From assembly GCA_964460215.1 (NCBI GenBank), contig CAYWQM010000014.1, positions 892 to 64,891 of the forward strand: a DNA stretch of 64,000 bases. The letters run 5' to 3'. Below the pieces are notes generated by a model, which had not been told where the DNA came from, did no database searches, and was given only the letters and a program-made list of their open reading frames with translations. Source of the DNA: an uncultured Lentisphaerales bacterium. Its GTDB lineage: Bacteria; Verrucomicrobiota; Lentisphaeria; JABSQK01; CAJWLW01. Shown piece by piece: positions 1 through 49,317 of the stretch; the first letter of the stretch is position 1; every line of letters starts with the position of its first letter. The translations under genes were made by a program, and so were the position numbers.

Positions 1-1719
1 GAGCCGCGCGCCGTAGTCGCGAAGTATGACGAGGCGGCATCCGAATACACGCTGTGGTCGACTACGCAGATGCCGCATCTGCTGCGCGGCGAAGTGGCGC
101 CACTGCTTGGTGTCGATATCGAGAAGCTGCGGGTCATTGCACCCGATGTCGGCGGTGGATTCGGCGCCAAGGCGAACGTTTATCAGGAAGAAATTCTCGC
201 GCCGATCGTGGCGAAAGCCCTCGGCCGACCGATCCGCTGGGTCGCCTCACGCCAGGAAGATAACACCGCTACGGTGCATGGCCGTGCCCATGTCGACTAC
301 ATGTCATTCGCTGCCAGCAAGGACGGCCGTATCGAGGGCGTCAAGTACAAGATGTTCGCCGATGTCGGTGCACGTTACACGCGCATGACGCCGTTGATTC
401 CGCCGCTGGCGATGTGGATGTCTACCGGCTCGTACGATGTGCAGACGCTGCGCTACGAGATCATCGGTGTATTCACCAACACGGTGACGACCGAGGCTTA
501 CCGCGGCGCCGGTAGGCCCGAAGCTATTCATATTGTCGAACGAACGGTTGATAAGCTGGCGCACACGCTCGGTCTCGATCCGACCGAGGTGCGGCGGAAG
601 AATTTCATCCAGCCCGATCAGTTTCCGTACGACACGCCTTCGGGCATGCGTTACGACTCCGGCGAGTACGAGCGTGCCCTGGACAAGGCTCTCGGGTTGG
701 TCGACTACAAGGCCCTGCGTGAGCGCCAGGAAGAGCAACGCAAAGCCGGCGGCCCGCTTATGGGTATCGGCGTTTCCACGTACATCGAAATCTGTGGCTT
801 CGGGCCGCATGAGTATGCCAACGTCACCGTCGAGAAAGACGGCGCTGTGACGGTGCTGACTGGCAGTTCACCGCATGGACAGGGACATATCACGACCTGG
901 TCACAGCTGGCGGCGGAGACTCTGCAGGTGCCGATCGAAAAAATTACTGTGAAACATGGCGATACCGGTATCGTTCCCGACGGCGTCGGCACCTTCGGCA
1001 GCCGCAGCGCGCCGGTTGGCGGCGTCGCGGTGTTCAATAACGCCAAGGCCGTGGCGGAGAAGGCCGGCAAGATCGCTGCCCACCTGCTCGAGGCTGCAGC
1101 CGACGACGTCGTCCTGGAGGACGGCAGTTTTCATGTGAGTGGTGTGCCGCAGCGCGCGATCTCCTGGGATCAGGTAATCGAGACTGCCAATTCCGGCAGC
1201 CTGCCTGCCGACATCGACAGTGACTTGAGTTCCGAAGAAGCTTTCACCGTCGGACCACAGGGCGAGACCTTCCCGTTCGGCTGTCACGTCTGTGTTGTCC
1301 AGATCGATCCGGAAACCGGCGTGTTGACGATCGAGCGCTACGTAACGGTTGATGACTGCGGTCCGGTGATCAATCCGATCATCGTCGACGGGCAGGTCCA
1401 CGGCGGTCTCGTCCAGGGGCTCAGCCAGGCCTTGTTCGAAGGTGTGATTTATGACGACGACGGCAATCTCCTGACCGGTTCGTTCATGGACTATGCCTTG
1501 CCACGCACGCAGATGCTGCCGCACTTCGAGACCCACCGTACCGAGACCCCGTCGCCGAATAATCCGTTAGGCGTCAAGGGTATTGGCGAAGCGGCAACCA
1601 TCGGTTCGACTCCGGCCGTCGTCAATGCCGCAGTCGATGCCATGGCCCATCTCGGCATTACCCATCTTGACATGCCGCTGACGCCTGAGCGCCTCTGGCG
1701 TGCCATTCAGGACGCTTAG
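1..1719 (+). CDS. Molybdopterin-binding subunit of the xanthine dehydrogenase / aerobic CO dehydrogenase (CoxL-like) family, C-terminal part. The reading frame is open from position 1, so the gene starts upstream of the window.
   Basis: Frame 1 is open from nt 1 through the stop at 1717-1719. The translation (…GGGFGAKANVYQEEILAPIVA…GRPEAIHIVER…) matches conserved blocks of molybdenum hydroxylase large subunits. Antisense ORFs inside it are taken as GC-rich noise. Confidence 0.8.
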   Translation, partial: EPRAVVAKYDEAASEYTLWSTTQMPHLLRGEVAPLLGVDIEKLRVIAPDVGGGFGAKANVYQEEILAPIVAKALGRPIRWVASRQEDNTATVHGRAHVDYMSFAASKDGRIEGVKYKMFADVGARYTRMTPLIPPLAMWMSTGSYDVQTLRYEIIGVFTNTVTTEAYRGAGRPEAIHIVERTVDKLAHTLGLDPTEVRRKNFIQPDQFPYDTPSGMRYDSGEYERALDKALGLVDYKALRERQEEQRKAGGPLMGIGVSTYIEICGFGPHEYANVTVEKDGAVTVLTGSSPHGQGHITTWSQLAAETLQVPIEKITVKHGDTGIVPDGVGTFGSRSAPVGGVAVFNNAKAVAEKAGKIAAHLLEAAADDVVLEDGSFHVSGVPQRAISWDQVIETANSGSLPADIDSDLSSEEAFTVGPQGETFPFGCHVCVVQIDPETGVLTIERYVTVDDCGPVINPIIVDGQVHGGLVQGLSQALFEGVIYDDDGNLLTGSFMDYALPRTQMLPHFETHRTETPSPNNPLGVKGIGEAATIGSTPAVVNAAVDAMAHLGITHLDMPLTPERLWRAIQDA

Positions 1720-6835: not shown

Positions 6836-7410
6836 TGCGGCACCGTATCGACGCGGCGGGTCGTCCTGTGGATCTGGCCGTCCTTATAGTAGAAAGTCAT
6901 GACGTAGTGAATGCCGTGCAGCCTCAGCCAGTTGTCGTCCGGCAAGTTGTTATTCGCGATGATCGACTCAGCGCCGGTCAGGGTGGCCTCAGGCGGTGCC
7001 ACGTAAACCTTGCGTGGATGCAGAACGTAGGTGCCGCGCATGAAAAAGACGTAAATCTGTTTTCCGTCCTTCTCAGGGTCAATGCCGTCGAAGTGGATGA
7101 AGAGGTTGCCATCCGGTGCCAGGCGGCGGAACAGATCGTCGATCGCGGGCAGGTAAGCCCGGTCGAACCGATCGCTCTTGAGTTTCTCGTCGACAGCCAA
7201 GCCCGTGGTTTTCACCCCGAGCATGTCCCGGTTGAACGCCACCCCTGTGACACTGTGCCAGACACTGAAAAGCAGCAGTGCGACAAAAGCAGTCGTGAGT
7301 CCCCAGTCGAGCTGTTTTACTGATTGTTCATCCACAGTTCCAGCACCATCAGTGCGAAGATCGCATAACTGTAGTCTGCCCGGTTCGCGCCGTGTTCGTT
7401 GATCAGCCAT
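6832..7410 (-). CDS. Hypothetical membrane-anchored protein, with one TM helix after an Arg-rich N-terminus. The start is uncertain: the longest ORF overlaps the asnB 3' end by 94 nt, and a GTG at 7335 would cut the overlap to 19 nt.
   Basis: The ORF sits in a tight minus-strand operon between asnB and the membrane protein, with a 4-nt overlap downstream. Protein-like composition, with a TM segment LTTAFVALLLFSVWHSV. No recognisable family. Confidence 0.5.
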   Translation of the reverse strand: MADQRTRREPGRLQLCDLRTDGAGTVDEQSVKQLDWGLTTAFVALLLFSVWHSVTGVAFNRDMLGVKTTGLAVDEKLKSDRFDRAYLPAIDDLFRRLAPDGNLFIHFDGIDPEKDGKQIYVFFMRGTYVLHPRKVYVAPPEATLTGAESIIANNNLPDDNWLRLHGIHYVMTFYYKDGQIHRTTRRVDTVPQ

Positions 7411-9179
7411 TGCAGACGTGAGCGGTCGAAAAAACCGTCGTTCACCAATTTCCCCTCGGTCAGCAGCGCCTGTGTCTGGTCGCGCCAGTCGCCGCGCAGC
7501 CAGCGCGCGATCGGCACGCCGAATCCCATTTTACGGCGCGAGAAAATTTCTTCAGGGAGCAGGTCACGAAAGGTGTCCATAAGAATGCGTTTACGCGTCA
7601 TGCCCTGTTGTTTCCAGCGATCCGGCAGTGCCAGTGCGAGCTCGACGACGTCGGGGTCCAGGAACGGGCTTCGCACTTCGAGTCCGTGCGCCATCGATGC
7701 CCGATCGACCTTGACCAGGATATCGTCGCACAGATACGTCTTGAGATCTACTTCCATGATGCGGTCGATCAGCGCTTTCGGCGGTCCGGGATCGTGGTCC
7801 TTGAGAAAAGACACGGTTGCGGGCCACTCAGTCTCCAGCAACTGCGGGCCGTAGAGTGATTGCTTTAACGGCGATGGACACCGGGAAATGAGGCGCAGAT
7901 AACGATCGATACCGTCCTCCTCGGAAATTTCCAGCAACCGCTGCAGCCGTCCGAAGAACGTACGTTCCTCGGTTTTCGGTGGCAGCATCCGGCGCATTGT
8001 CCGGCCGATGCTGCGGCGCATGGCGCGCGGCAAAAGCGCCATGCACCGGCATAGCTTCATTATTCGATAGCGATAATAGCCGCCGAACAGCTCGTCCGCC
8101 GCATCGCCGCTCAGCGCCACGGTCACATGCTCGCGCGTAAACCGGCTGAGCAGCGACATGGGCAGCATGGAAGCGTCACAGAACGGCTCTTCGAAATCAC
8201 CGACGATACGCTGCAGGTGACTGAAATCGTTGGGTGCCACTTCCAGGAAGTGGTGGTCGGTAGACAGGTGGCCGGCAACCATTTCGGCATAGGCGCGTTC
8301 ATCGTATTTTTTCTCCGGGAACCCGATCGAAAATGTTTGAGTCCGCGTCCCTGCCTGGTCGGCGAGCGCACAGATCAGGCTGGAATCGACACCGCCGGAA
8401 AGAAACAGTCCCACCGGCACATCTGCCACCAGTCGCCGTTGTACGGCAGTCTGCAGCCGTTCGCGCACGGCTTCACAGGCGGCGGCGTAGTCCCCTCCGA
8501 AATCGCTGGTGACCGATGGTTCCCAGTAGCGGGTCATCGTCAGTGAGGCGCCATCCCAGAGGGCATAGTGCGCTGCCGGAAGTTTGTGGACTCCACAATA
8601 AATCGTCCGCGGTGACGGGATGTACTGATATTCGAGATAGTCATGGACCGCGGTGCAGTCAACGCGGGTATCGACCCAGTCCACGACGCGCAGCGATGCC
8701 GGACCGCTGGCGAAGGCGAAGCGGCGGCCTTCCTGTGCATAAAACAGCGGCTTCTGTCCGAGGCGGTCGCGGGCGAGAAAGATGTGGCCGGAATCGACAT
8801 GCACAATAGCGAACGCGAACATGCCGTTGAGCTCGTCCAGCATCGCTGGGCCGCGTTCCTCGTACAGGTGCAGCAGAACTTCGGAGTCGGTTTCGGTTTT
8901 CAGGGTGTGGCCGTTGCGTATGAGCCGCTGTCGCAGTGCCGCGTAGTCGTAAATTTCACCGTTGAAGACCAGTGCCAGGGTCCGATCTTCGTTGTACAGG
9001 GGTTGCCGCCCGCCGGCAAGGTCGATGACCGACAAGCGCCGATGCACCAGGCCGATGGCATCATGAACAGCGGTGCCACCATCGTCCGGGCCGCGCTTGA
9101 CCAGCGGTACAGCCATTGCCGCGAGCAGCTCGATGTCGGGCGGACGTTCAGGATTAAAAATGCCGGCGATACCGCACAT
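7317..9179 (-). CDS. asnB: Asparagine synthase (glutamine-hydrolysing), AsnB family
   Basis: 620 aa with an N-terminal MCGIAGIF class-II glutamine amidotransferase nucleophile and the synthetase-domain blocks (SGGVDSS…). Confidence 0.9.
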   Translation of the reverse strand: MCGIAGIFNPERPPDIELLAAMAVPLVKRGPDDGGTAVHDAIGLVHRRLSVIDLAGGRQPLYNEDRTLALVFNGEIYDYAALRQRLIRNGHTLKTETDSEVLLHLYEERGPAMLDELNGMFAFAIVHVDSGHIFLARDRLGQKPLFYAQEGRRFAFASGPASLRVVDWVDTRVDCTAVHDYLEYQYIPSPRTIYCGVHKLPAAHYALWDGASLTMTRYWEPSVTSDFGGDYAAACEAVRERLQTAVQRRLVADVPVGLFLSGGVDSSLICALADQAGTRTQTFSIGFPEKKYDERAYAEMVAGHLSTDHHFLEVAPNDFSHLQRIVGDFEEPFCDASMLPMSLLSRFTREHVTVALSGDAADELFGGYYRYRIMKLCRCMALLPRAMRRSIGRTMRRMLPPKTEERTFFGRLQRLLEISEEDGIDRYLRLISRCPSPLKQSLYGPQLLETEWPATVSFLKDHDPGPPKALIDRIMEVDLKTYLCDDILVKVDRASMAHGLEVRSPFLDPDVVELALALPDRWKQQGMTRKRILMDTFRDLLPEEIFSRRKMGFGVPIARWLRGDWRDQTQALLTEGKLVNDGFFDRSRLQWLINEHGANRADYSYAIFALMVLELWMNNQ

Positions 9180-18893: not shown

Positions 18894-20035
18894 TTTGCAC
18901 CTCCCGCAGGCTGGTTCAGTCGATCATATACACCTTCGACTGCCAGGCGGTCGGGGGTGGGGTCCTGCTGGTACGGTACAACATCGATCTTCATCTCGGC
19001 AATCTTGCGGGCGTATTCGCGCCAGACGATGCCGCGCCCGTCCGTGGCGTAGGCGCCGATTTCCTTGCGTAGGCCGTCGATCTCGTTCCGGTACTTGACG
19101 TTGAGGCCCTTCGCTTGGATCTCTGCCTCGCGCAGCAGTGCCGCAGCGGCATTCGTCCGTTCGATCTGATAAGCGTCCGCTGTTTTTTCACCCTTGATTC
19201 GAGCCTGTTCCGCGGCCAGCCTGGCCGACTCCAGGTCTCCGGTCAATTCCTGCTTGGCCACTTCCTTTTCGCGATTGACACTGGCCAGTTCCGTTTTCCG
19301 TGCGTTCGTGAGTTTCTCGCGCTGAGCCTTCAGCCGTTCGACTTCCTGGTTGGCCACTTTGCGTTCTTCAATCGCCTTTTCGTAGGCCGCATCAAACTTT
19401 GGCTTTGGACAGATCAACTGGACGATGAGAAGCCCGTGCGGTTGGAGCATGTCATTGAGGCGCCGCTGTGCAGTCTCGATGGCGACGCCGTACTTGGTCG
19501 GGTCGGTCACTTCCGCGACAGAGAAGCGGCCGAACTCGTCCCGCAACACCGACCGTGCCAGGCTACGGATCCAGAACTGCTTGAACTCCTCACCAGGGCC
19601 GGACTCGTTGAGTACGTGCCCGGCTTCGGCGGTCAGGATCTGGTACTGAATCTCGAGCGAGTCGAACCAGAAGTTGCTGCCGTCCATGGCGCGCACGGTC
19701 AGCTTTTGGACGCGGTTCGCGTCCAAATCATAGGAGCCTTCCATGACGAACTTGTTCGGGGTCTTGTCGAGAATGAAAATCTCCTGTACAATGGGCAGGT
19801 GAAACTTGATCCCCGGCTGGGTGATGATCTCCTGGTTCCCAGACAGATAGTTCACTTTGATTCCGACCTGCTCGGCGGAGATTTCCCGGTACATCCGCAG
19901 GTTGATCACCAGAAAGATCAGCCCGATAAAAATGATGAAAAAGGGGATGATCCGCCTCGCGCCATCAAGGTCAAGCTCAGGTGGTTTGAGTCGTTTAATG
20001 CTGATGTTGAGCCTCCGCAAATAATTTTCTGCCAA
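18890..20035 (-). CDS. SPFH/band-7 family protein (HflK/HflC-like), membrane-anchored; partner of the previous gene
   Basis: 381 aa with an N-terminal TM (IIPFFIIFIGLIFLVI), then an SPFH-like domain and a coiled-coil tail. Forms a tandem pair with 17799..18893. Confidence 0.8.
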   Translation of the reverse strand: MAENYLRRLNISIKRLKPPELDLDGARRIIPFFIIFIGLIFLVINLRMYREISAEQVGIKVNYLSGNQEIITQPGIKFHLPIVQEIFILDKTPNKFVMEGSYDLDANRVQKLTVRAMDGSNFWFDSLEIQYQILTAEAGHVLNESGPGEEFKQFWIRSLARSVLRDEFGRFSVAEVTDPTKYGVAIETAQRRLNDMLQPHGLLIVQLICPKPKFDAAYEKAIEERKVANQEVERLKAQREKLTNARKTELASVNREKEVAKQELTGDLESARLAAEQARIKGEKTADAYQIERTNAAAALLREAEIQAKGLNVKYRNEIDGLRKEIGAYATDGRGIVWREYARKIAEMKIDVVPYQQDPTPDRLAVEGVYDRLNQPAGGAK

Positions 20036-20323
20036 ACCTACACATTCTCTCAGATTGCAACGGGCCCTAACTTAGGGTCGCTTCCACCAATTGCCACAAC
20101 GTATGGTTGCATTGCGCCAAAAATATAGGCGACATTGACGTACCGATCAGCTGCAGCCACGACAGAAACCGGCGCGCGTGGAAATGTCTACGCACCTTTA
20201 TTCGCGGGACTTACAATGGTGGCGCCCAGGAATAGATCGAATACGGTTTTCCCGCGTAGTTGTATGGACGAAGACTGTGTTTTCCAGTGCCGGACCTTGT
20301 TCGCCATTCACTCGCGACGCGAA

Positions 20324-20914
20324 TCAGAGCGCGTCGCGGTCGGCCAGCGCCTTCAGTTCACCCAGGTCGCCGGCGCGTTCGGCCAGGGCTTCGGCTTCCC
20401 TGGCAGCCTCGGCATTGGCCTGGGCTTTTTCGATCTGATTGCGGATGGTGCTGTTGTAGTAGATAACGTATGCCGTGGCATTCTCGGCCGAGCTTACCGA
20501 AATCGAAATATCGGCAGTAGTCAACAGCTTGACGATCCCCGGATCAGTGAAGTATTTCTCGGCCAGCGTCTGCTGGATCAGTTTGATGCCGAGCGGGTCA
20601 GACTTTGCTGTCTTATCCTCACGCAAATCCATTGTCAAACGGACGTGGAAAAGCTGATCGTTGAGGAATTGATAGCGGATCTCCGTGATCGTGCCGTCGC
20701 CGGATGCAACATACTGGGCGTATCCACGCTTCTCCTTCACCAACTGTGCGCCTGGGACCACCATCTGCAGCTCAGCAGGGCTCTGTCCCCATTTTGTCTG
20801 ATCATAACCTTCAATGATTTTCGGTGGATCGACAATCGGTTCCGGGTCATCGACTTCCTGTGCATGAAGGGCAACGCAGCTGGAGAATAGGATGAGTGCG
20901 AGCATTCGGTTCAT
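20324..20914 (-). CDS. Secreted hypothetical protein of 196 aa with a signal peptide
   Basis: N-terminus MNRMLALILFSSCVALHAQ. No family recognised. It is the 3'-most gene of the secreted-protein cluster. Confidence 0.6.
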   Translation of the reverse strand: MNRMLALILFSSCVALHAQEVDDPEPIVDPPKIIEGYDQTKWGQSPAELQMVVPGAQLVKEKRGYAQYVASGDGTITEIRYQFLNDQLFHVRLTMDLREDKTAKSDPLGIKLIQQTLAEKYFTDPGIVKLLTTADISISVSSAENATAYVIYYNSTIRNQIEKAQANAEAAREAEALAERAGDLGELKALADRDAL

Positions 20915-21011
20915 GGCGATTATATCCTGTTTGGTTTTTTGGCACCAATAAAAAGCCCGGAAGCCAAAATATGACTTCCGGGCGTAGGAATTGAAATGTC
21001 TTCGCCAATTA

Positions 21012-23261
21012 TTACGGCGTCTTCGAGTCGATCAGCCCTTGGGTGTTGCTGAGCATGGATGCCAGGCAGTCCGCTTCGTCGCCGAACGTGCCGGGGCAGA
21101 CATTGACGCTGATCAGGGCGAGCTGGCCAAGCGTGTCGACGTAATTGGTAACCGCTGTAAAGTTGACCAGGTCCGTGCCCAGCGTACACACGGCGTTGAA
21201 GACGATCGCCTCGATGTCGTCGCAATTGACACAAGCCGTGCCGGGTCCCTGCGGCCCCTGCGGCCCCTGTGCGCCTGTGGCACCGTCGTTGCCGGTCGGG
21301 CCCTGCTCGCCCTGCGGGCCTGCCTCGCCTGCCGGGCCTGCCGGTCCCTGTTTGCCCTGCGGTCCCTGCTCGCCCTGTGAGCCCTGCGAGCCGCCGCCGG
21401 CCGTTTCCCATGACGCCAGACCATCACCATCGGAGGTCAGGACTTTACCTGCGCCGGGTTCGCCGCCGGTAATTTTTATCTGCCCGGCAACTTCAAGCTT
21501 GGCTCCCGGATTCGTTGTTCCAATGCCGACTTCGCCGTCTGACATGATACTGAGATGATGATTGTGACCGCCGCCACCCGACAAGCTTAGGAAGTTGTCT
21601 GATGCCGAGCTGCCCGCCGCGCCAAAGACCGCCGCGGTCGATTTCGCGTTGTTGTTGGCTTTGATCACGAAATCAAGCGGCACATTGTCACCGCCGCCGT
21701 TCGCCTCCAGCGTAAGAGCCCTGCTGTTGCTCAGTTTTTTGAGGTTGAGTCCGCCGCTGGGCAGCAGTACCATGTGAGTATCGACGGAGTTAACGGAGAA
21801 GACCAGTGAATTATCGCCCGCCGAGCTGCCGGCTGACCCGTAAATCCTGGCAGTGGAAGCCGCATTGTTGTTGGCCTTGATCACGAAATCAAGCGGCACA
21901 CTGTCACCGCCGCCGTTGGCCTCCAGCGTAAGAGCCCTGCTGCTGCTCAGTTTTTTGAGGTTGAGTCCGCCGCTGGGCAGCAGTTCCATGTGAGCATCGC
22001 CGTTGTTAGCGGAGAAGACCAGGTAGTTATCGCCAGCCGAGCTGCCGGCTGCCCCGTAAATCCTGGCAGTGGAAGCCGCATTGTTGTTGGCCTTGATCAC
22101 AAAATCAAGAGGCACATTGTCACCGCCGCCTTTCGCTCTGAGCACGACGGTCTGTGAATTTGTCAAATCGCCGGCAATCAGCGAACCACCGTCGCGAATC
22201 CAGTCGCCATCATCGCCGCCGCCGGCGCTGCCGATGGTGCCGGCATCGCGGGCGTGCACTGTGCCATCGGCGTCGACTACCAGGACACTGTCCAAGCTGT
22301 CGTCGGCCGGGATATTCCCCAACTGCACGTGCTGGGTGTTGGCAAGGACTCTGATCGCCGGACCACCGACACCGCCGCCCTGGCCGAACATAACCATGCT
22401 GCCCGCACCAGAGTTGCTGTAGCCAATGCCGCCGCGTCTGGAGCCGTCTTCCTCGAAGGTGATGATTTTGTTGTTGTCGCCTTCGAGAACCAGGGTGCCG
22501 GTGCTGTTGGAGATGCCGTTCTGCGAGACCACCAATCGGCCGGTCGAGTCATTGCTGCCACCGATCAGGGCATCGCCGTTGGCGACGTGGAAATCGGCCG
22601 CCGGATTGATTGTCCCGATACCGACCTCGCGATTATTGTTGATTGAAATATCCGGGCCGCCGACACCAGCGCCCTGGGCGAAGATCACGACCGCATCGGC
22701 TCCGGCATTATGGCCGATACCGCCGCGGCGGGTGCCGTCTTCGTGGAAGTTGATAAGCCGGTTGCCGTTGCCCTGCAGGATCAGCATCGGCTGCCCGGTA
22801 CCGCTGAGGCCGTCTTTCGAGAGCACCAGGCGCGGCACGAAATCGCCGAGCTCACCCGGATTGTCGCCGATCAGGACGTCTCCGCTGCCTTGTCCGTCGG
22901 CAAAATGATAATTGAACTGGTCATTGGGGTTGGCCGTACCGAAGCCGATCTGCCGTTCATAGCCGCCGCTGATCGAAATGTCGGCATCATTGATGCCACC
23001 TTGATTGGCGAAGAAATTCAGGCTGCCCGAACCAGAGTTGTTGTGACCAATACCGCCGCGGCGCGTTGAGCCTTCGACAAAATTGATCTGCCGGTTGTTG
23101 TTGCCGTGGATGAACAGAGCTGCATCGTTGTTGCCGGTCGCGCCATTCCGCTCGATCGTTACGGGGCTATCCCCACCGCCGAATGTTGTCTGACCATGGG
23201 CGGCAACGCCGATCAGGCTTGCTCCAATGAGTGTGACGATAAGTTGGGTAGTGCGATTCAT
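21012..23261 (-). CDS. Secreted repetitive fibre-like protein. It has N-terminal 90-100-aa repeats, three ~71-aa near-identical tandem repeats, a phage-tail-fibre-like motif, a collagen-like GXY tract (about 17 triplets) and a Cys-rich C-terminal tail of about 75 aa.
   Basis: 749 aa. Signal peptide [24 protein letters not shown]. The motif [24 protein letters not shown]…[16 protein letters not shown] resembles a tail-fibre-domain signature. Collagen tract [65 protein letters not shown] upstream. Confidence 0.8.
21240..21401 (-). repeat. Collagen-like Gly-X-Y triplet tract (coding) inside the fibre-like gene
   Basis: Residues about 621-674 of the protein give an uninterrupted G-X-Y periodicity, rich in Gln/Pro/Glu. 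Confidence 0.8.
21569..22130 (-). repeat. Near-identical tandem coding repeats (about 213-216 nt per unit, 2.6 copies) inside the fibre-like gene
   Basis: Protein repeats GGGD(N/S)[21 protein letters not shown](A/S)AGSSAGDN…[13 protein letters not shown](S/N)SRALTLEAN. The DNA copies are visibly near-identical, e.g. ccgcattgttgttggccttgatcac(g/a)aaatcaag(c/a)ggcaca(c/t)tgtcaccgccgcc occurs three times. Confidence 0.85.
22332..23099 (-). repeat. Three degenerate ~100-aa coding repeats (N[RK][LQI]I[NT]F.E(D)G[ST]RRGGIG[HY]…) in the N-terminal half of the fibre-like gene
   Basis: Seen in the translation at residues about 55-160, 165-260 and 262-345. Confidence 0.7.
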
Positions 23262-23310
23262 GACGATCTTTACCTTTTCTAGTTGTTTAGTTGTGTGGAT
23301 TTCAAACAGA

Positions 23311-23334
23311 CAAAAATCCCCGAAAAACCCGGGG
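23311..23334 (-). terminator. Candidate minus-strand hairpin (CCCCG-loop-CGGGG) followed by a T-run, lying between the ubiquitin-like gene and the fibre gene
   Basis: On the minus strand the sequence reads CCCCGGGTTTTTCGGGGATTTTTGT. It is about 370 nt downstream of the ubiquitin-gene stop and about 50 nt upstream of the fibre-gene start. Weak. Confidence 0.35.
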
Positions 23335-23705
23335 TCTGCTGTCAGTCACCGCGTTGCGGCAATACCGACAATCGTGGTTTCACGGCTCAGTTATTCCTAT
23401 GGTATAAGAAATTCCCCGACAGATTGCAACCCCTTTCCTAAAAATGTTCCACTTAGCCGGAGGCGGGCGTCGTCGTCGATCAGACCGGGTGAGGTCGACG
23501 GCAAATGGCCAGGGGGATCCCTTTGGCGCCGCTTGGGATCAACTGTAGGTGGCGCCTGTTCAATCAAAGAGTCCGTGGACCTTCGTGAAGCGGGAGATAT
23601 CGCCGGGATCACCGTTGTCGAGGTGGACCGGTCGTCAGAATATCGTGACCGTCGAACCGCTGCCGATGTCGCGAATGTCGGGGCCGACCGAGTCGTTCAG
23701 GTTGA

Positions 23706-24224
<519 letters not shown>

Positions 24225-24387
24225 TTATTGTCGGCAGAAAAAAAATCCTGCTGATTTTTTTGAATCCAGAGGCGTAGTCTTACCCCCCATTTTCCAGTAT
24301 CCACCTTATTGTAGAAAACTCCCCAAATTATTGCAAGCTTTTTTGGGTATGGCGCTTCCTTCCCATAATATCGACGCGTTCGATCCG

Positions 24388-24443
24388 AAGATATATATAT
24401 ATCATAACTATCTATATATAAACATTTTAAGATTCTCATAAAT
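24388..24443. other. Strongly AT-rich tract with an (AT)6 microsatellite plus a second TATATATA, in the 556-nt divergent intergenic region between the ubiquitin-like gene and the acyl-CoA synthetase gene
   Basis: Sequence gaagATATATATATATcataactatcTATATATAaacattttaagattctcataaa, in a genome that is otherwise >60% GC by eye. Probably promoter/UP-element DNA or a horizontally acquired remnant. Confidence 0.6.
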
Positions 24444-24763
24444 GGGGTGTTGGGTTTGTGGCAAGATCATTTTTCACTGGGTTTTCCCGGATAGCTGTAA
24501 TGTGAATAATGCAATGCCCTCCCGCGTTGATTTCGTCTTCCTTGCCGACACCCCATCTGCAGAAGCTGATGCCGGGCAGCATCGCTATCATGTAGGCATC
24601 GGATACGGCTGGCGAGGCCGGCTGCGCCTGCGGACGCTCCATCCAATATGTCCATCGCAAAAAAGACGAGATCACTGGTGCCCGCTGGTCAGGCCGGTCA
24701 CCTGTGCGCTGTTATTCGCGACGCTCGTCGGTTACTTTTCCCAGGCTCATGGAGACCTGACCG

Positions 24764-26278
24764 ATGAACCTGATTGAAACTTTTCAGCCCAGTCTGCGCG
24801 GCAGGGCCGACAAGCCGGCGCTTTGGTTCGGTGACCGGTGGTATACGTTCGGCGAGCTTGATCGCCAGTCCGATGCCGTGGCTCACGCGTTGGTCAACGA
24901 CTATGGTGTCGGCCGGGGCGATCGGGTGTCGATGTTTCTCGGGAACTGCCCGGAGTTGATCGTCTTTTATCTGGCCGGCCTCAAGACCGGCGCCATTGTG
25001 GTGCCGATAAATATTCTCTATCGCGACCGGGAGCTGACGCATCTGCTCACCGATGCTGAACCGCGGGTGCTTTTATGCGATCCCCAGCGGTTTGAGGTGC
25101 TGGCGCCATTGCGCCATCAATTCGATGCTCTCGAGCAGATCTTTGTCACCGGGGCCGATACGCCGGCGACGACGCGGGGGTTCGGTGAGTTGACTGAATC
25201 CGTTCCCGATACGCCATTGTCCGTTGCGGGGATCACCGCCGATGATCCGGCGCTGATGATCTACACCTCCGGCACTACCGGACGTTCCAAAGGCGCCCTG
25301 CTGACGCACCACAACCTGGTCTCGAACATTGTTACGCTGCTGCAGTGTTGGCAGTGGACTGCCGCCGATCGTTTCCTGCTGGCGCTGCCGATGTTCCATA
25401 TTCACGGCCTCGGCAACGGGCTGCACGGTGCGCTGGCATCCGGCTGCACGACCTTTTTGCTACCGCGGTTTCACGCGGATACAGCGTCTGAGCTGCTGAG
25501 GCGCGAGAAGTGCACGCTTTTCTTCGGCGTGCCGACGATGTATGAACGCCTGCTGGAGCATGCAGACGCCGATGGCGCGGTGCCGGCGGACATGCGGTTG
25601 TACGTGTCCGGCTCGGCGCCGCTGTCCCCCGACACCTTTGCCCGTTTCAAGACGGTGTTCGGCCACGAGATCCTGGAGCGGTACGGCATGTCGGAGACCG
25701 CGATGATCACTTCCAACCTCTATGCCGGGCCGCGGGTCCAGGGTTCAGTCGGCAAGCCGCTGCCGGGTGTGTCCGTGCGCATCGTCGACGAAGCGGGCGT
25801 GTCGGTTGCCGGTGACGAAACGGGTGAGATCCAGTTGCGCGGGCCGAACGTGCTCAAGGAATACTGGCGCCAGCCCGAGAAGACGGCCGAGGCGTTCCAG
25901 GACGGTTGGTTTCGCACCGGCGACTTGGGGCGCTACGATGCGCAGGAGAACATCATTATTTGCGGCCGAGCCAAAGAGCTCATCATCTCCGGCGGCTTCA
26001 ACATCTACCCGCAGGAGATCATCAACTGCTTAGTCGACCACGCCGGTGTCGTCGAGGCCGCCGTCATCGGTGTGCCGGATCAGCGGCGCGGCGAGCTGCC
26101 GAAAGCCTATGTAGTAGCCGCCGAGCCGGTGCCGACCGAGGCGGAGTTGACAGCCTACTGCACGGCGCAGCTGGCCAGCTTCAAGGTGCCGAAGCGGATC
26201 GTTTTTCTAGACGCCCTGCCGCGTAATGCGATGGGAAAACTGCAGCTGCAAAACCTGCCGGAGCGCGATTGCATCTGA
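24764..26278 (+). CDS. AMP-dependent synthetase/ligase (acyl-CoA synthetase, ANL superfamily)
   Basis: 504 aa with an AMP-binding motif (YTSGTTGRSKGA) and A-domain core blocks (GYGMSET, GWFRTGDLG, K at PKxxxGK). GGAGAC RBS upstream. Confidence 0.9.
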   Translation: MNLIETFQPSLRGRADKPALWFGDRWYTFGELDRQSDAVAHALVNDYGVGRGDRVSMFLGNCPELIVFYLAGLKTGAIVVPINILYRDRELTHLLTDAEPRVLLCDPQRFEVLAPLRHQFDALEQIFVTGADTPATTRGFGELTESVPDTPLSVAGITADDPALMIYTSGTTGRSKGALLTHHNLVSNIVTLLQCWQWTAADRFLLALPMFHIHGLGNGLHGALASGCTTFLLPRFHADTASELLRREKCTLFFGVPTMYERLLEHADADGAVPADMRLYVSGSAPLSPDTFARFKTVFGHEILERYGMSETAMITSNLYAGPRVQGSVGKPLPGVSVRIVDEAGVSVAGDETGEIQLRGPNVLKEYWRQPEKTAEAFQDGWFRTGDLGRYDAQENIIICGRAKELIISGGFNIYPQEIINCLVDHAGVVEAAVIGVPDQRRGELPKAYVVAAEPVPTEAELTAYCTAQLASFKVPKRIVFLDALPRNAMGKLQLQNLPERDCI

Positions 26279-44501: not shown

Positions 44502-47500
44502 TTATTCGCTCGTATCGAACCACGGCAGTGCCTGCCAAACCCGGACGTCGCGACCGGAGCCGGCCAGCGCCAGCTTCAGATTGTCCGGGGACAGGGCCAT
44601 CGCGTGAACTGGATTTTTTCCCGGTATCGCGAAAAGCTCATTGCCGTCGGTCACCTCCCACACCCGTGTCAGCCGATCGGCGCTGCCGGAAAAAAGCCGC
44701 CTGCCGTCAGCTGAAAAGATCATATCCGTCACGGCCGCATCGTGTCTGGTCTGTCGCCAGAGGAGGGTACTGTCGAGTTGCCGGACTTCGCAACTGCCGT
44801 CGCGGTACCCTACAGCCAGCAGCCCTTGTGCACTGACCGCGACAACTGAGACCGGGGCGCCACCGTCGAATCCCCCAGTTGCCGCTCCGGTTGTCACGTC
44901 CCAGAACCGTACGTTGCCGTCATCCCCGGCCGAAACTGCCTGGCGACTGTCGGGAAGGAAAGCGACGGTCCTTACCGCTCCCTGATGCTGGTTGAATGTT
45001 TGCAGCGCTTGTCCGCTATCCGTTTTCCACAAGCGTGCCGAGCCGTCGAGGCTTCCTGTCAAGATGGACCGGCCATCGGCGGCGGCGGCGGCGGCGGTCA
45101 CCAGATCCGCGTGCCCGTTGCATTCGATCGGCGCCAGCTTGCTGTCCAGTGTCCAGATCCAGGCATTGTTTCCGGCGGCTGCCAGCAGCCGGTTGTTGTC
45201 GAGAAAGACGACTGCTGCCACGGTAGTTTCGTGACGCAGTGTTGGTATTGCTTCCGTGTCCTTCCGTGGCCATAGATAGACCATGCCGTCGTTACTGCCG
45301 CTGGCCAGTCGCCGGCCGTTCGGGCTGTACGCCAGGCAGCGCACGTCACCCGTATGCCGGCGATAGGTGCGGGGCATCGCATCGTTGGCGATCCGCCACA
45401 CCTTGATGCGGCCGGCTGCATCGGTGCTGGTTACCGTGCCTGCGTCGGTGAGTACCACACGGGTGATTGCCTCGCCCTGTCCGCTGAACGTGTGCCGCAG
45501 CGACTGCAGGCCGATATCCCAGATGCGAATAGTACCATCGCTGCTGCCGGCCGCCAGTACACCCTTGATCGCTGCCACTGCCGTGACCGGGCCTGTATTC
45601 TCGTTCATTGTCATGACTGTGCGAGCGTTTTTCACATCCCAAAACGTCACACTCCCATCCGCAGTCACGGTGAACGCATGCGGCGTGTTCCGGACAAACC
45701 CGATATCGACAAACCGGCCGGCCAGGGTTTCGTGCCGGCGATTTCGCAAATCGTGGATTCTTGCTTCACCGACTGCATCCAGGCTGACCAGCCAGCGGCG
45801 GTTGATAGCCAGGGCAGTGACGGCGTTGGTGTGTGAATCAGGCAGCACGTGACTGTTGCCGAAATCGTCGCCTGTCCACGCGCGCAGGGTGCCGTTTTCG
45901 CTGCCGGCAACGATGACCCTGCCGTTCGTTGATGCGGCGATGCATGTCACCGCACCGTCTTGGCTGCCAAGCGTCTGGAATTCGCTGCCGCGCCAGGTGC
46001 GCACCAGGCCGTCGTCGCTGCCGGTGACGATTCGGCCACTGCTGTCGAGTGCCAGACATCGGGTACCTGCGGTCACGCGACCGAGCTCGGCTTCCGCTAT
46101 GTCCGCGGCGGTGTTCCACACGACGACACTGCCGTCCGGCCCTGCCGTGACGACCTGCTCGCCGTTGCTGCCGGCGGCCATGGCGCGCAAGGGGCCGCCG
46201 GTATCGATCTGCGCTATAAGGCGATCCGCCTGGCGTCGCAATCGGCCCCATTCCCAGTGGCGCGCGGTTGCCGGGCACAGGTCCAGTTCCTGCATTACCG
46301 CGTCGTAGCGTTGGTTTTTAAGTGCTGCTGTTGCTAGCCGGAGCCGATAGGCGTAGCTATACCGTGTGCTTGTCTGCTGCAGCTCGGTGATCCTGCCGTC
46401 GCGAGTGCTCACCAGGTTTTCCTGTCGCTGCGCTTCGGCGCGGACAATCGAGGCGTGATGCTCCAACGCTTCGATGTAGCGCTTGTCCAAGGACGTCATC
46501 TGATGTCGCCGCTCGAGAGCGAAGAAGAACGCCACGATCAGCAGACTGATGATCGCTATACTGGTCGCGATCAGGCTGGCCTCCCGCTGGTTACGCTTGA
46601 ACAACAGCCAGGATCGCTTCCACAGGCCGGCGCCTTCTACCGATGTGGCGTATCCGGCGAGGTACGCCTCGATGTCGGCTCTGAGATCTTCGACTTTCTG
46701 ATAACGCTGCGCCGGATTCTGGGCCATCGACTTCATCACCACCGCCTCGAGTTCCGGTGGGATCGCGTGGTCCGTTCGCTGGCCAGGCGGCACGATCGTG
46801 CCGCGTCGCGTCTGGCGTATCATCTCCTTCGGCGTCTCGCCGACGATCGGGCACTTGTGGGTCAGGATCATGTACAGAATTGCCCCAAGCGAATAAATGT
46901 CCGTACGTTCGTCCTGCTGTGCCACGTTGCCTTCAGCTTGCTCAGGAGCCATGAAGCCCGGCGTGCCCCGGATGATCCCGTCTCGTGTTGGTGTGCTGCC
47001 ATTGGCGGTCTGGCTGCCAATGGCCGTTCCTGTCCGCTGTGGTGTTTCGCGGCTGAGCTGTTTGGCCAGGCCCCAGTCGAGCAGGATCACCTCGCCATAG
47101 TCTCCGATCATGACGTTGTTGGGCTTAAGGTCCAGGTGAATGATGCCACGCGAATGCGCGAAAGCGGTGGCATCACAGAGTTTACCGAAGTCCTCCAGCA
47201 TCGAGCGCAGCGGTTTCCTGGCGACGATGTCACCGTCGCCGTCCTTCAGGCGCATAACCAGGTCATAAAGATTGGCGCCCTGCACCCAGGTCATCGTGAA
47301 GTACGGGTCGCCGTGGATCGACCAGCCGATATCGTGGACCGGCACGATATTGGGGTGTTCCAGGTGGGCGACAATCCGCGCTTCGCGTGTGAATCTGTCG
47401 ATAAGTTCGAGGTCGCCGTTGGCGCGGAGTACGACTTTCATCGCCACCTCGCGTTGCGCGGCCAGGTCGCGGGCCCGCAGAATGCAGCCCATGCCGCCCA

Positions 47501-47699
47501 GGGCGATGACGTCGAGGATTTCGTACTTGCTGTCGGGCTGCCAGGCATCGCGCGCGATCGCCACCGCCTCGTCCATCAATTCGGCGTGCGACCGGCCGTC
47601 GTGTTCAGCTTCATTGTTGACACGGCTCGTGTAGAACTGCGAAAAGTCCGGCAGGTCGCTGCTCGATTCGGGCCCGTATGTACCGCTGTCGCTGGTCAT
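44502..47699 (-). CDS. Ser/Thr protein kinase (Hanks-type) with one TM helix and a large C-terminal WD40 beta-propeller region
   Basis: 1065 aa. Kinase subdomains (AMKVV, HRDLKPNN, DWGLAK, GTPGFMAPE). TM segment SLIATSIAIISLLIVAFFFAL. Many WD-like repeats (…GSDDGLVRTW…, SGSNDGMVYLW, TGSLDGSARLW, …). Confidence 0.85.
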   Translation of the reverse strand: MTSDSGTYGPESSSDLPDFSQFYTSRVNNEAEHDGRSHAELMDEAVAIARDAWQPDSKYEILDVIALGGMGCILRARDLAAQREVAMKVVLRANGDLELIDRFTREARIVAHLEHPNIVPVHDIGWSIHGDPYFTMTWVQGANLYDLVMRLKDGDGDIVARKPLRSMLEDFGKLCDATAFAHSRGIIHLDLKPNNVMIGDYGEVILLDWGLAKQLSRETPQRTGTAIGSQTANGSTPTRDGIIRGTPGFMAPEQAEGNVAQQDERTDIYSLGAILYMILTHKCPIVGETPKEMIRQTRRGTIVPPGQRTDHAIPPELEAVVMKSMAQNPAQRYQKVEDLRADIEAYLAGYATSVEGAGLWKRSWLLFKRNQREASLIATSIAIISLLIVAFFFALERRHQMTSLDKRYIEALEHHASIVRAEAQRQENLVSTRDGRITELQQTSTRYSYAYRLRLATAALKNQRYDAVMQELDLCPATARHWEWGRLRRQADRLIAQIDTGGPLRAMAAGSNGEQVVTAGPDGSVVVWNTAADIAEAELGRVTAGTRCLALDSSGRIVTGSDDGLVRTWRGSEFQTLGSQDGAVTCIAASTNGRVIVAGSENGTLRAWTGDDFGNSHVLPDSHTNAVTALAINRRWLVSLDAVGEARIHDLRNRRHETLAGRFVDIGFVRNTPHAFTVTADGSVTFWDVKNARTVMTMNENTGPVTAVAAIKGVLAAGSSDGTIRIWDIGLQSLRHTFSGQGEAITRVVLTDAGTVTSTDAAGRIKVWRIANDAMPRTYRRHTGDVRCLAYSPNGRRLASGSNDGMVYLWPRKDTEAIPTLRHETTVAAVVFLDNNRLLAAAGNNAWIWTLDSKLAPIECNGHADLVTAAAAAADGRSILTGSLDGSARLWKTDSGQALQTFNQHQGAVRTVAFLPDSRQAVSAGDDGNVRFWDVTTGAATGGFDGGAPVSVVAVSAQGLLAVGYRDGSCEVRQLDSTLLWRQTRHDAAVTDMIFSADGRRLFSGSADRLTRVWEVTDGNELFAIPGKNPVHAMALSPDNLKLALAGSGRDVRVWQALPWFDTSE

Positions 47700-47813: not shown

Positions 47814-49082
47814 TCAAGCGTCCTGGCTGTCATTCGGCGTCGGGACCACGTGGGTACCGACAATCTTGTCGTGAAAGGCTTCGCCGTCGCGATCCCACAA
47901 TGCCCAGAAGAATCCGAACCCGAAAGGAGCCATCGACAACCAATAGCAGGCGGCCCGAAACAGTGCTGGCCCAGCAGTCAGACGTTTGCCGTCCCGATCG
48001 ACAACGCAGAGTCCACAAATCCACTTGCCGATTGTACGGCCGCGCCAGGCGACAGCGATCCAGGCGTACAGCGTCAGCACTAGCGGCCAGGCCCGCGGGG
48101 ACTGGTGCACGACGATCAACACCAGCAGCGCGTCGATCAGGAAGGCACCGGCGCGTTGGGCGCGGCCGGCAACTTTGACGTTTGCCTGTCGTGACAGCTC
48201 GGCGGCAACGCGGTCGAGCGCCTCCAGCAGCTCCTCTGCTGTCTGATAGCGATGACGCGGCTTCTTCTCCATCATTTTACAGATGATGTCACATACTGCC
48301 GGTGGCAGGTCGGGATTCTTGATGCTCGGGTGCGGCAGTGGTTCACTGATGTGTTTGCTCATCACCGCAAAGGCACTGTTGCCGCTGAACGGCGCTTCGC
48401 CGGTGCACAGGTGGTAGAAGGTGGCGCCGAGTGAATAGATGTCGGAGCGGGCATCGACGTGTTTGGCGTCCTTGGCTTGCTCAGGTGCGATATAGCTGGG
48501 CGTACCAACGCCAACGTCGGTGCCGGTAACGCTCATGTAATCGCGGCCGTCGGTGCATTTGGCGAAACCGAGGTCGGCGAGTTTCGCGGTGCCATCTGCT
48601 GTCAGCATGATGTTTTCAGGCTTGATATCGCGATGAATGATCCTGTGCTGCGCCGCTGCCGCCAATGCCGCCGCGACGCTGCGCACGATGTTGATCGCGC
48701 GGGGGACCTGAATGCGTCCTTCGTTTTCGAGAAGCTGGCGTACGGTACCGCCGTCGATGTATTCCATGACGATATAGTGGGTGCCGTCATCAGACCCGGC
48801 GTCGACGGTGCTGACTATGTTGGGATGATTGATGCGGGCCGCAATGCGCGCTTCCTTGATGAAGCGCTCGATGTATTGGGGATTCTCCCGGGCCAGTTGC
48901 GGTGTCAGTGTTTTTACGGCGACGGGGATATCCAGATCAGGGTTGCGGCCCAGCGACACTTCGCCCATGCTGCCGCGGCCCAAAGGGCTCGAGAGGCTAT
49001 ATTTACCGAGCTTCACCAGCGGTGTGGCGATGGTTTCGTCCACACCGCTGTCGGTGGTCGTTTTTTGATCGTCGACGTTCAT
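47814..49082 (-). CDS. Ser/Thr protein kinase (Hanks-type) fused to a C-terminal RDD-family membrane domain
   Basis: Kinase motifs (GRGSMGEV, AVK, HRDIKPEN, DLGFAK, GTPSYIAPE). C-terminal TM region with R…D…D spacing (…AWRGRTIGK…VVDRDGKRL…WDRDGEAFHDK). Start placed at ATG 49082 (MNVDDQ…); the track ORF extends 69 codons further with poor coding character. Confidence 0.8.
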   Translation of the reverse strand: MNVDDQKTTTDSGVDETIATPLVKLGKYSLSSPLGRGSMGEVSLGRNPDLDIPVAVKTLTPQLARENPQYIERFIKEARIAARINHPNIVSTVDAGSDDGTHYIVMEYIDGGTVRQLLENEGRIQVPRAINIVRSVAAALAAAAQHRIIHRDIKPENIMLTADGTAKLADLGFAKCTDGRDYMSVTGTDVGVGTPSYIAPEQAKDAKHVDARSDIYSLGATFYHLCTGEAPFSGNSAFAVMSKHISEPLPHPSIKNPDLPPAVCDIICKMMEKKPRHRYQTAEELLEALDRVAAELSRQANVKVAGRAQRAGAFLIDALLVLIVVHQSPRAWPLVLTLYAWIAVAWRGRTIGKWICGLCVVDRDGKRLTAGPALFRAACYWLSMAPFGFGFFWALWDRDGEAFHDKIVGTHVVPTPNDSQDA

Positions 49083-49317
49083 CTGGTTATGCTTGTCAGA
49101 CTGTGTGGGTGTATGACAACAGGCTGCCAGTCGCAGAATATACAGCCGTAGATGCAGTCTGGCGAGTTGCCTCTGTTCGCAGGCAACGACAACGCTGTGT
49201 CGATCACTTCGAATGGCCTTGCACTGCACGAAGGGCGGGTCTATCTTTCTCGTTTTCCATGCCGTTTCCGTGACCGACCCGAGCGACACAACTTTCTACC
49301 CCACGCGGTTATCGACC

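Follow-up and report, generated by a model that had tools for sequence, protein, structure and literature searches.

Collagen-like surface proteins are familiar from several bacteria and include Streptococcus Scl1/Scl2, Legionella Lcl, and Bacillus BclA, the hair layer of Bacillus spores. In vertebrate collagens, registration elements lie at the C-terminus, such as the cystine knot of collagen III and the cysteines at the COL1/NC1 junction of FACIT collagens. Phage tail fibres, another group of relevance here, fold in the cytoplasm. The system closest to the locus described below is the mosaic adhesive trimeric (MAT) fibres of Bdellovibrio bacteriovorus, represented by Bd2133 (PDB 8OND), Bd1334, Bd2439, and Bd3182, for which a capping-loop motif, V-G-G/N-pi-x-x-P-x-x-x-L, has been described (Caulton et al. 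2024, PMC10769870).

Our analysis of the window (the whole 64-kb stretch of DNA) indicated that the product of a minus-strand gene at 21012-23261 is probably a MAT-like mosaic fibre, a variant of an already described fibre kind. The open reading frame list confirmed 749 codons plus a stop codon. The protein is an exact member of a public protein collection (P0001) and has no name on record in NCBI, ENA, or JGI. All four elements listed in an earlier note on this DNA, namely a tail-fibre motif, a collagen tract, N-terminal repeats, and a repeat of about 71 aa, were found in this frame, and its reading of the product as a secreted fibre-like protein is supported. The features are as follows.

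21012 to 23261, minus strand: complete fibre gene (open reading frame list; identical to P0001; 16 homologues)
23190 to 23261, minus strand: putative signal peptide, aa 1-24, read from sequence (basic N-region, hydrophobic core, A-x-G/A-A end)
22200 to 23189, minus strand: N-terminal domain of three ~100-aa modules, aa 25-140, 141-239, and 240-354 (self-alignment; direct-repeat family D4)
21510 to 22157, minus strand: array of three 72-aa (216-nt) units, aa 369-440, 441-512, and 513-584 (TRF period 216; unit identities; offset-216 identity profile)
21942 to 22157, minus strand: repeat unit u1
21726 to 21941, minus strand: repeat unit u2
21510 to 21725, minus strand: repeat unit u3
21706 to 22052, minus strand: patch hypervariable between near-identical strains, which also holds the indel zone of strain L001 (comparison with L138 and L001)
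21408 to 21536, minus strand: capping-loop/terminal beta-helix module, aa 576-618 (phmmer match to Bd2133)
21240 to 21392, minus strand: collagen-like tract of 17 uninterrupted Gly-X-Y triplets, aa 624-674 (Pfam PF01391; triplet count; 9-nt periodic DNA repeats)
21015 to 21239, minus strand: C-terminal Cys-rich domain, aa 675-749, CxxC...C...[C]...C...C...LIDSKTP (invariant Cys columns)
20955 to 20983, minus strand: terminator-like hairpin 29 nt past the stop codon, with a 12-bp stem, 8 G-C pairs, and a T-run (consensus scan; pattern match only)

The architecture is that of a secreted, probably three-chained fibre in which modules like those of phage tail fibres are joined to a short stalk of collagen and a small Cys-rich end domain. 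Judged from its residue pattern, the leader is a Sec-type signal peptide, and it is kept in relatives P0005, P0008, and P0009 although the module that follows it differs. An Rfam scan of 20000-24800 detected no leader or riboswitch at E <= 1, and a promoter scan upstream of the gene found no sigma-70-like site above background, sigma-70 scanning being uninformative for this phylum.

The tail-fibre signature proved to be a real and widely shared fibre module. A phmmer match to Bdellovibrio Bd2133 (8ond_A) aligned aa 571-628 with chain residues 203-262, which form the end of the second beta-helix of Bd2133 and the linker before its tip. With a 65-aa query, the match to Bd2133 reached E 1.2e-7 and weaker matches were obtained to 8oml, 8ol4, and 8ojn; the module is homologous to the solved trimeric beta-helix fibres Bd2133, Bd1334, Bd2439, and Bd3182. 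It is common to 8169 protein cluster representatives and present in 45 of the 52 viral loci fetched; phrog_366 and phrog_28668 also match over it. Within the 749-aa protein, cap-type motifs occur at aa 105, 213, and 578. Partner domains among 60 cap-module proteins were Peptidase_S74 (10), YadA_head (6), Collagen (5), Lcl_C (2), Peptidase_G2 (2), and Phage Tail Collar (1). The nearest matches outside the family carry S74 (P0027) or Tail Collar with Gp10_C (P0028), and one relative, P0010, combines the same 72-aa units with an S74 domain at its C-terminal end.

The likeness to MAT fibres extends beyond the cap. As in that group, the gene is chromosomal and its product has a signal peptide, beta-rich modules are closed by a V-G-x-G-x-x-P-x-x-x-L capping loop, and the last cap, a strand, and a short linker run into a swappable C-terminal unit. 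Evolution is likewise mosaic, with several paralogues per genome, and the S74 end of P0010, which contrasts with the collagen and Cys domain of the window protein, has its counterpart in 13 of the 21 MATs. Module maps revealed a mosaic of exchangeable parts, and swaps among relatives break exactly at the cap motif: P0004 and P0006 share 376 aa at 100% identity as far as GNVGIGTSSPG, beyond which they are unrelated, and P0008 and P0009 are likewise alike up to the cap motif and then unrelated. Unlike the MAT fibres, this protein has a collagen triple-helix tract, collagen having 0 occurrences in the MAT paper (PMC10769870). Its C-terminal unit is small, Cys-rich, predicted to be helical, and conserved across the family instead of varied; it is the modules in the middle and at the N-terminus that vary. 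The host belongs to the PVC group and is not a predator. No sign of the conserved ~130-aa domain at the N-terminus of MATs was seen when aa 24-360 were searched by tblastn (E <= 1e-3) against four Bdellovibrionales loci (L025, L069, L074, and L082), which may or may not contain it. Nor does the protein belong with YadA-type trimeric autotransporters, since no YadA_anchor or YadA head/stalk Pfam match was found at E <= 1 and the C-terminus is predicted to form three short helices.

The three N-terminal repeats of about 100 aa described previously are present, with 34-40% identity among themselves in self-alignment and an invariant RRGGIG core. Each module closes with a cap-type motif, degenerate in the case of VQLGNIP. 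The domain weakly resembles the repeats of P0114, a 2693-aa fibre-like protein (31% identity, E 1e-8), and is missing from P0005, P0008, and P0009. The tandem repeat downstream also exists, with a unit of 72 aa and 216 nt, but its description as near-identical was an overstatement: u1 and u2 share 85% of their DNA sequence, and u3 is only 56-63% identical to either. TRF placed the repeat at 21645-22136 (2.3 copies, 92% matches) or, alternatively, extended it to 22218 (2.7 copies, 82%). The best stretch reaches 95.6% over 135 nt (21865-21999 vs 21649-21783), and the longest exact run common to the units is 48 nt. Relatives carry 2, 3, or 5 copies, and the units group by position across the family, distant relatives included. 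A full-length AF2 monomer model (mean pLDDT 37.6) hinted weakly that the 72-aa units contain beta strands. Both repeat types, the N-terminal and the 72-aa one, are restricted to a few Lentisphaeria relatives, as is the six-cysteine domain at the C-terminus.

The collagen tract was likewise found where expected, although it spans 51 residues and not the 54 previously counted. This uninterrupted (Gly-X-Y)n sequence, with a Gln-rich Y position, matched the PF01391 profile at E 4.4e-6 and 26.8 bits, 0.4 bit below the gathering cut-off of 27.2, and the precomputed annotation of P0001 includes the same family. The tract comprises 8-20 triplets in relatives. Collagen and Cys domain always occur together at the C-terminus with 2-5 residues between them, 2 in the window protein, and a minimal protein of this type (P0022, 137 aa) consists of the pair with a lipobox-like leader. 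The Cys domain was found only in Lentisphaeria proteins. Its AF2 model contains three helices (pLDDT 75, pTM 0.62), and searching PDB and BFVD for similar folds with this model brought up nothing at E <= 0.001; the top TM-scores, 0.47 for a saposin-like protein in PDB and 0.54 for an uncharacterised phage protein in BFVD, were treated as no match. The fourth conserved cysteine is a tyrosine in the window protein, which leaves five cysteines, so a simple three-disulphide scheme cannot hold in this allele.

With Scl, BclA, and Lcl, the protein shares a short prokaryotic Gly-X-Y tract lacking hydroxyproline, an adjoining non-collagen domain expected to trimerise it, repeat-length polymorphism between strains, and, presumably, the form of a surface filament. 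By contrast, its flanking domain is C-terminal, Cys-rich, and predicted to be helical, and is not an Scl V domain, a BclA C1q-like domain, or Lcl_C. Beta-helix fibre modules, which those families lack, make up most of the protein, and polymorphism among close strains resides in the 72-aa array and not in the collagen tract. The Scl1 and Scl2 models (NCBIfam NF038330 and NF038329) scored 34.5 and 31.4 bits where their cut-offs are 400 and 325, and matched over the collagen tract only. Pfam and NCBIfam searches of the 749-aa protein detected no anchor motif (LPXTG, beta-barrel, or T9SS CTD), an LPXTG sequence being absent altogether. As in vertebrate collagens, cysteines stand a few residues past the last Gly-X-Y triplet (GPG-TA-C-VN-C), a placement that would allow a disulphide lock between chains and zipper-like folding from the C- to the N-terminus. 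The parallel is no more than an analogy.

Variation among strains is concentrated in the repeat array, and the length variation that the earlier note had anticipated does occur. Strain L001, which is 99.7-99.9% identical, shows an exact 216-nt in-frame gap corresponding to one unit less, together with 3 other mismatches in the gene. The gap was placed at 21885-22100, its exact position being ambiguous within the repeat, and the indel produces a u1/u2 hybrid unit. In L138, which comes from an independent assembly and represents a third allele, 749 aa long, 44 of the 46 in-gene differences fall inside a 347-nt patch with 12.7% divergence, compared with a background of ~0.2% over the other ~12 kb. 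All 25 aa changes of this allele lie at aa 404-526. Near-identical strains differ almost only inside the internal repeats of the fibre gene. A tblastn search for silent donor cassettes or paralogues with the protein against the 64-kb window matched only the fibre gene itself.

Could the number of repeat copies and the mosaic patch have been produced by collapse, expansion, or chimeric strain joining during short-read metagenome assembly? All the sequences are indeed from such assemblies, and many family members end at contig ends in or next to the gene, which indicates that assemblers struggle here. We nevertheless consider this explanation very unlikely: the 48-nt maximum of exact identity between units falls short of customary read lengths and final k-mer sizes, the three-unit form of 749 aa recurs in two independent assemblies, the two-unit allele of L001 is a clean in-frame hybrid, and unit types keep their positions across distant relatives. 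Tandem coding repeats with such highly similar stretches might be taken for an on/off surface antigen switching by slippage, as had been suggested. That reading is scarcely credible, given that the 216-nt unit is a multiple of three (3 x 72) and the observed indel is in-frame, so that copy-number changes alter the length of the protein and keep its frame. The collagen-tract repeats have a 9-nt period and would also remain in-frame. Scans of the gene and its 5' region for repeats with units longer than 3 bases found nothing frame-shifting, nor is any such repeat visible in the 5' sequence. Because the changes are in-frame, they represent size and antigenic variation instead of on/off phase variation.

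Two further explanations concern the origin and role of the fibre. The prior suggestion of a tailocin or prophage remnant, a tail fibre stranded in the chromosome, draws on matches to PHROG tail-fibre families and on the order of cap motif, then collagen, found on viral contigs as well. However, neither the PHROG nor the viral matches extend beyond aa ~550-690, and a tblastn search of 50,697 phage records with aa 1-620 found nothing. As previously stated for the neighbourhood, phage genes are lacking, in that Pfam detected no phage-family, integrase, or tail gene in the 30 largest ORFs of the 64-kb stretch, whose families are only housekeeping, carbohydrate-active, kinase, and similar ones. 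The GC content of the gene resembles that of its surroundings, and the same housekeeping neighbours, in the order AMP-ligase, ubiquitin, fibre, 196-aa ORF, and two SPFH genes, are syntenic in five related assemblies. The signal peptide and Cys-rich domain point to folding outside the cytoplasm, which also argues against a prophage remnant; we consider this origin highly improbable. Less easily set aside, though still unlikely in our view, is a structural role without adhesion, in which the protein would form, much like the BclA hair layer, a surface nap or extracellular matrix (a coat, a spacer, or an aggregate network), with fibre length set by repeat number. The collagen stalk with a globular end is analogous to BclA-type filaments, neither a lectin nor an adhesin tip domain was recognised in the 749-aa protein by Pfam and NCBIfam searches, and the best-conserved parts of the family are structural, namely the collagen, Cys domain, and 72-aa units. 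On the other hand, the prediction for the C-terminal domain is helical, not a C1q/TNF-like jelly roll, and variable N-terminal and middle modules combined with diversification among strains are more typical of molecules that diversify under selection, whether for evasion or for recognition, than of a plain scaffold.

We favor, as the probable reading, a mosaic surface fibre that is homotrimeric, exported by the Sec route, and encoded by an uncultured member of the Lentisphaeria; it would be a chromosomal, MAT-type relative of the tail fibres of phages. The earlier idea of a domesticated adhesin or fibre fits this published concept (PMC10769870). For such a fibre, the signal peptide would export the chain from the cytoplasm, whereupon the six-cysteine helical domain may trimerise and become disulphide-locked directly against the last Gly-X-Y triplet. 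This domain would bring the 17 triplets of the collagen helix into register, and the helix could then zip toward the N-terminus. Because the helix would zip from a registered end, the three chains would be aligned for the beta-rich modules (the 72-aa and ~100-aa units) to fold, each being closed by a VGIGTxxPxxxL capping loop. The Cys domain may thereby do the job of the cleavable S74 chaperone of related fibres. A C-terminal element that starts trimer folding, as proposed here, would follow the same logic as in phage S74 tail fibres and tailspikes (K1F endosialidase and T5 pb1), with which, as with collagen-containing fibres (phrog_366 and phrog_5073), the protein also shares the cap module and the order of cap, then collagen. 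Unlike those phage proteins, it has no S74, carries a signal peptide, stands outside any phage context, and shows no similarity to them beyond the cap and collagen region. The finished fibre would project from the cell and might bind particles, polysaccharide, or other cells.

Diversity could arise by homologous recombination on two scales. Unequal crossing-over or gene conversion in the 216-nt array may generate in-frame changes in length and sequence, and modules may be exchanged at the conserved cap-motif codons. More tentatively, the Lentisphaeria Cys domain may be an undescribed module for collagen trimerisation and registration, a substitute for S74 that is not removed, with cap-motif codons serving as recombination joints and the 216-nt array reshuffling the fibre at strain level. 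We regard this extended reading as possible but doubtful; if true, it would provide a cellular counterpart of phage tail-fibre mosaicism in a free-living marine bacterium, outside predators and pathogens. The favored reading, if correct, suggests that MAT-like chimeric fibres are not peculiar to the predator Bdellovibrio but serve bacteria generally as a surface device, which an uncultured PVC-group bacterium of marine origin here combines with a collagen stalk. Three alleles from almost identical genomes offer a clear natural case in which localised recombination diversifies a surface protein, and the locus could be used as a marker in strain-resolved metagenomics. As a compact, non-cleaved collagen trimerisation tag, the C-terminal domain could also be of interest for engineering recombinant bacterial collagens.

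The Cys tail of the neighbouring ubiquitin protein (CxxC...C...C...C) appears similar by eye to the C-terminal domain of the fibre, but a common domain was rejected, as BLASTP gave no match and hhalign a probability of 0.2%. This secreted ubiquitin is identical to the human protein at 70 of 73 positions and merits separate attention.

The fibre gene, a minus-strand ORF at 21012..23261, encodes a 749-aa protein identical to the public protein P0001. All four elements that the earlier note had described in it (a tail-fibre motif, a collagen tract, N-terminal repeats and repeats of ~71 aa) were found, in the following layout:

aa 1-24 (-), hydrophobic leader
aa 25-140, 141-239 and 240-354 (-), three ~100-aa N-terminal repeats with 34-40% mutual identity and an invariant RRGGIG core
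aa 369-584, window 21510-22157 (-), three 72-aa units (Tandem Repeats Finder, 216-nt period)
aa 576-618 (-), cap motif [43 protein letters not shown]
aa 624-674 (-), collagen tract, 17 Gly-X-Y triplets without interruption
end of the protein, cysteine-containing C-terminal tail of 75 aa

The collagen tract, described before as 54 residues long, counts 51, and Pfam Collagen matched the protein at E 4.4e-6, 0.4 bit below cut-off. Tandem Repeats Finder reported the 72-aa array as either 2.3 copies with 92% matches or 2.7 with 82%. Calling these repeats near-identical at the DNA level proved too strong: units 1 and 2 share 85% identity, unit 3 shares 56-63% with units 1 and 2, and the longest exact run shared by the 216-nt units is 48 nt, the best stretch being 135 nt at 95.6%.

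A sequence search against solved structures matched aa 571-628 of the fibre protein to Bd2133 (8OND), a fibre of Bdellovibrio. When the query was cut down to the 65-aa motif region, Bd2133 was recovered at E 1.2e-7, and three more Bdellovibrio fibres (8OML, 8OL4, and 8OJN) gave weaker matches. A capping-loop consensus, V-G-G/N-pi-x-x-P-x-x-x-L, has been defined at trimeric beta-helix edges in the mosaic adhesive trimeric (MAT) fibres of Bdellovibrio, and S74-type phage tailspikes also have this feature (PMC10769870). The cap motif of the fibre protein, VGIGTxxPxxxL, aligns to Bd2133 where the second beta-helix finishes and a short linker leads into the tip domain. At E <= 0.001, aa 1-620 retrieved 8169 cluster representatives in an exhaustive HMMER search; of the 150 matches listed, nearly all align via aa ~550-620. 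Sixty proteins carrying the module gave the consensus [44 protein letters not shown], and Pfam detected Peptidase_S74 in 10, YadA_head in six, Collagen in five, Lcl_C and Peptidase_G2 in two each, and Phage Tail Collar in one of these 60. The nearest matches outside the fibre family were P0027, which carries S74, and P0028, which carries Tail Collar and Gp10_C. The module is present in Bacteroidota, Patescibacteria, Elusimicrobia, Bdellovibrionales, Planctomycetota and others, and also in viral contigs. The tail-fibre-like motif of the earlier note is therefore a genuine, widespread fibre module rather than a chance likeness.

Resemblance over the whole protein was confined to 17 proteins among 5.8 billion clusters. 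A Lentisphaeria MAG, L005, is the nearest genome (76% identity across aa 323-749), and it alone, of all loci fetched, has the 72-aa units and the C-terminal domain; for the N-terminal repeats there are no more than weak relatives elsewhere, and viral loci share the cap segment with the fibre and nothing more. The N-terminal repeats, too, are modules delimited by caps, and are 31% identical (E 1e-8) to repeats of a 2693-aa fibre-like protein. A profile search with the C-terminal domain yielded nine additional proteins, most of which end at contig edges; all four with a source name are from Lentisphaeria. One MAG supplies two of the nine, so the family has paralogues, and one of the nine, P0022 (137 aa), is made up of just the domain preceded by a lipobox-like leader and a short collagen tract. 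Six cysteines of the domain are conserved in the family. AF2 modelled the domain from a 14-sequence alignment as three helices (pLDDT 75, pTM 0.62), and Foldseek found no significant match to this model in PDB or BFVD.

At aa 714 (window 21120-21122, -), the alleles of the window and of the near-identical strains L001 and L138 encode Tyr for the fourth conserved Cys (TNYVDT, versus ADCVDT or NECVSV in others), leaving an odd cysteine count in the C-terminal domain. Proteins P0018-P0026 are mostly fragments that begin within the collagen tract at a contig end, suggesting that genes with this domain routinely break short-read assemblies and that the family is therefore probably under-counted.

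The earlier note saw no phage genes nearby and considered a prophage or tailocin remnant as one possibility. Its observation holds for 30 ORFs over the 64-kb window, in which Pfam found no phage, integrase or tail genes; the families present include aconitase, asparagine synthase, alanyl-tRNA synthetase, SPFH, glycoside hydrolases, Ser/Thr kinases and an O-antigen ligase-like protein. GC content is even throughout the window. Five related assemblies (L001, L002, L003, L005 and L138) share one gene order, with an AMP-ligase, the secreted ubiquitin, the fibre, the 196-aa secreted ORF and two SPFH genes, among which only the fibre gene is noted to vary so widely, from 569 to 1086 aa. A tblastn search of aa 1-620 against 50,697 phage genomes gave no match, and the signal peptide and disulphide-rich domain fit folding outside the cytoplasm, unlike phage tail fibres. 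Because of this genomic context, the absence of a phage-genome match and these two protein features, a prophage or tailocin origin is not supported.

A homotrimeric fibre is the most likely form of the protein, since its cap module is homologous to solved trimers and collagen tracts require three chains. In every case the Cys domain is present and adjoins the last triplet (GPG-TA-C-VN-C), the position held by the S74 chaperone in P0010, a relative with 72-aa units. On these grounds we propose that the Cys domain would trimerise and become disulphide-locked, nucleating C-to-N zippering of the collagen helix, which would in turn register the beta-rich modules. Pfam and NCBIfam detected no anchor motif in the protein; from MAT precedent and the pattern of diversification, we infer a surface location and an adhesive role. 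The protein would work like a MAT fibre or a phage tail fibre, and it has a demonstrable module common to both. Membership tests placed it outside the Scl, BclA-type, YadA-type and prophage tail-fibre classes. Compared with described MATs, it has an added collagen stalk, a conserved, novel, Cys-rich terminus that is predicted to be helical, variable modules in its N-terminal and middle parts, and a non-predatory host.

The earlier note saw in the repeats a potential for length variation, between strains or phase-variable. L001 is 99.7-99.9% identical to the window along 22 kb, and its fibre gene differs by three substitutions and one exact 216-nt in-frame gap; the first unit left in L001 joins the N-part of window unit 1 to the C-part of unit 2, a hybrid that would be expected of unequal crossing-over. 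A third allele, again of 749 aa, occurs in L138; it is identical at aa 1-403 and 527-749 and has all 25 of its amino acid differences within units 1-2. At the DNA level, 44 of its 46 in-gene differences lie at 21706-22052 (12.7% divergence versus about 0.2% elsewhere), a pattern characteristic of a recombination or conversion tract. Because the 72-aa units group family-wide by position, into first, middle and last types, a three-unit array is old and the 2- and 5-unit forms are derived. In larger rearrangements, cap motifs mark the exact breakpoints: P0004 and P0006 match at 100% over 376 aa until GNVGIGTSSPG and are unrelated beyond, and P0008 differs from P0009 by an extra module placed between two VGIGTD motifs. 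Every observed change, whether indel, patch or module exchange, is in-frame and thus produces length and sequence variation, not on/off switching; of the two possibilities raised earlier, variation between strains stands and phase variation is not supported. An assembly artefact is an unlikely source of the repeats and their variation, since no exact shared run exceeds 48 nt and independent assemblies again contain the three-unit form.

The 196-aa ORF (window 20324-20914, -), which has a signal-like leader and no Pfam match, is the immediate downstream neighbour of the fibre gene, with a strong terminator-like hairpin between the two. It is kept in L001, L002 and 13 cluster members, is 93 aa long in L003, and has no ORF in L005. 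Upstream, a second terminator-like hairpin (window 23318-23334, -; 7-bp stem and T-run, no Rfam match) sits in the 444-nt gap following the ubiquitin ORF, 57 nt ahead of the fibre start codon, and could be the end of the upstream transcript or a leader element. Prepilin-type N-methyl/DUF1559 genes are typical of PVC-group genomes, and in L002 one of these (6882-7571, -; 229 aa, SBP_bac_10) lies between the ubiquitin and fibre genes, which are therefore not a fixed operon.

The ubiquitin gene (window 23706-24206, -), which adjoins the fibre gene in L001, L002, L003 and L005, encodes 166 aa with a signal-peptide-like leader and a ubiquitin (Pfam E 6e-32) identical to human ubiquitin at 70 of 73 positions (differences T22S, V26I and A28T). 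It lacks the C-terminal Gly-Gly, having LRLQAQ for LRLRGG and then a Cys-containing tail. The known bacterial case, BfUbb of Bacteroides fragilis, a secreted antibacterial toxin, is only 63% identical to human ubiquitin (PMC3352274, PMC5705921), so the window protein is far nearer the eukaryotic form. In L005 (1253-3634) and L003 (5324-7624) the gene encodes 766-793 aa, comprising ubiquitin, a Cys linker and a ~600-aa DUF6345 region; the window gene is truncated, but downstream, outside the ORF (~23640-23700, -), the final codons of the long version (GPDIR...TVTIF*) can still be read. An additional indel in L138 (130 alignment columns, window 24000-24249) leaves a 77-aa ORF, and the gene appears to be decaying in the window lineage. 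Elsewhere in the window, two eukaryote-type Ser/Thr kinase genes are adjacent (44502-47699 and 47814-49289, both -), one encoding a 1065-aa protein in which the kinase is joined to a long WD40 beta-propeller array, and the second a kinase with an RDD domain.
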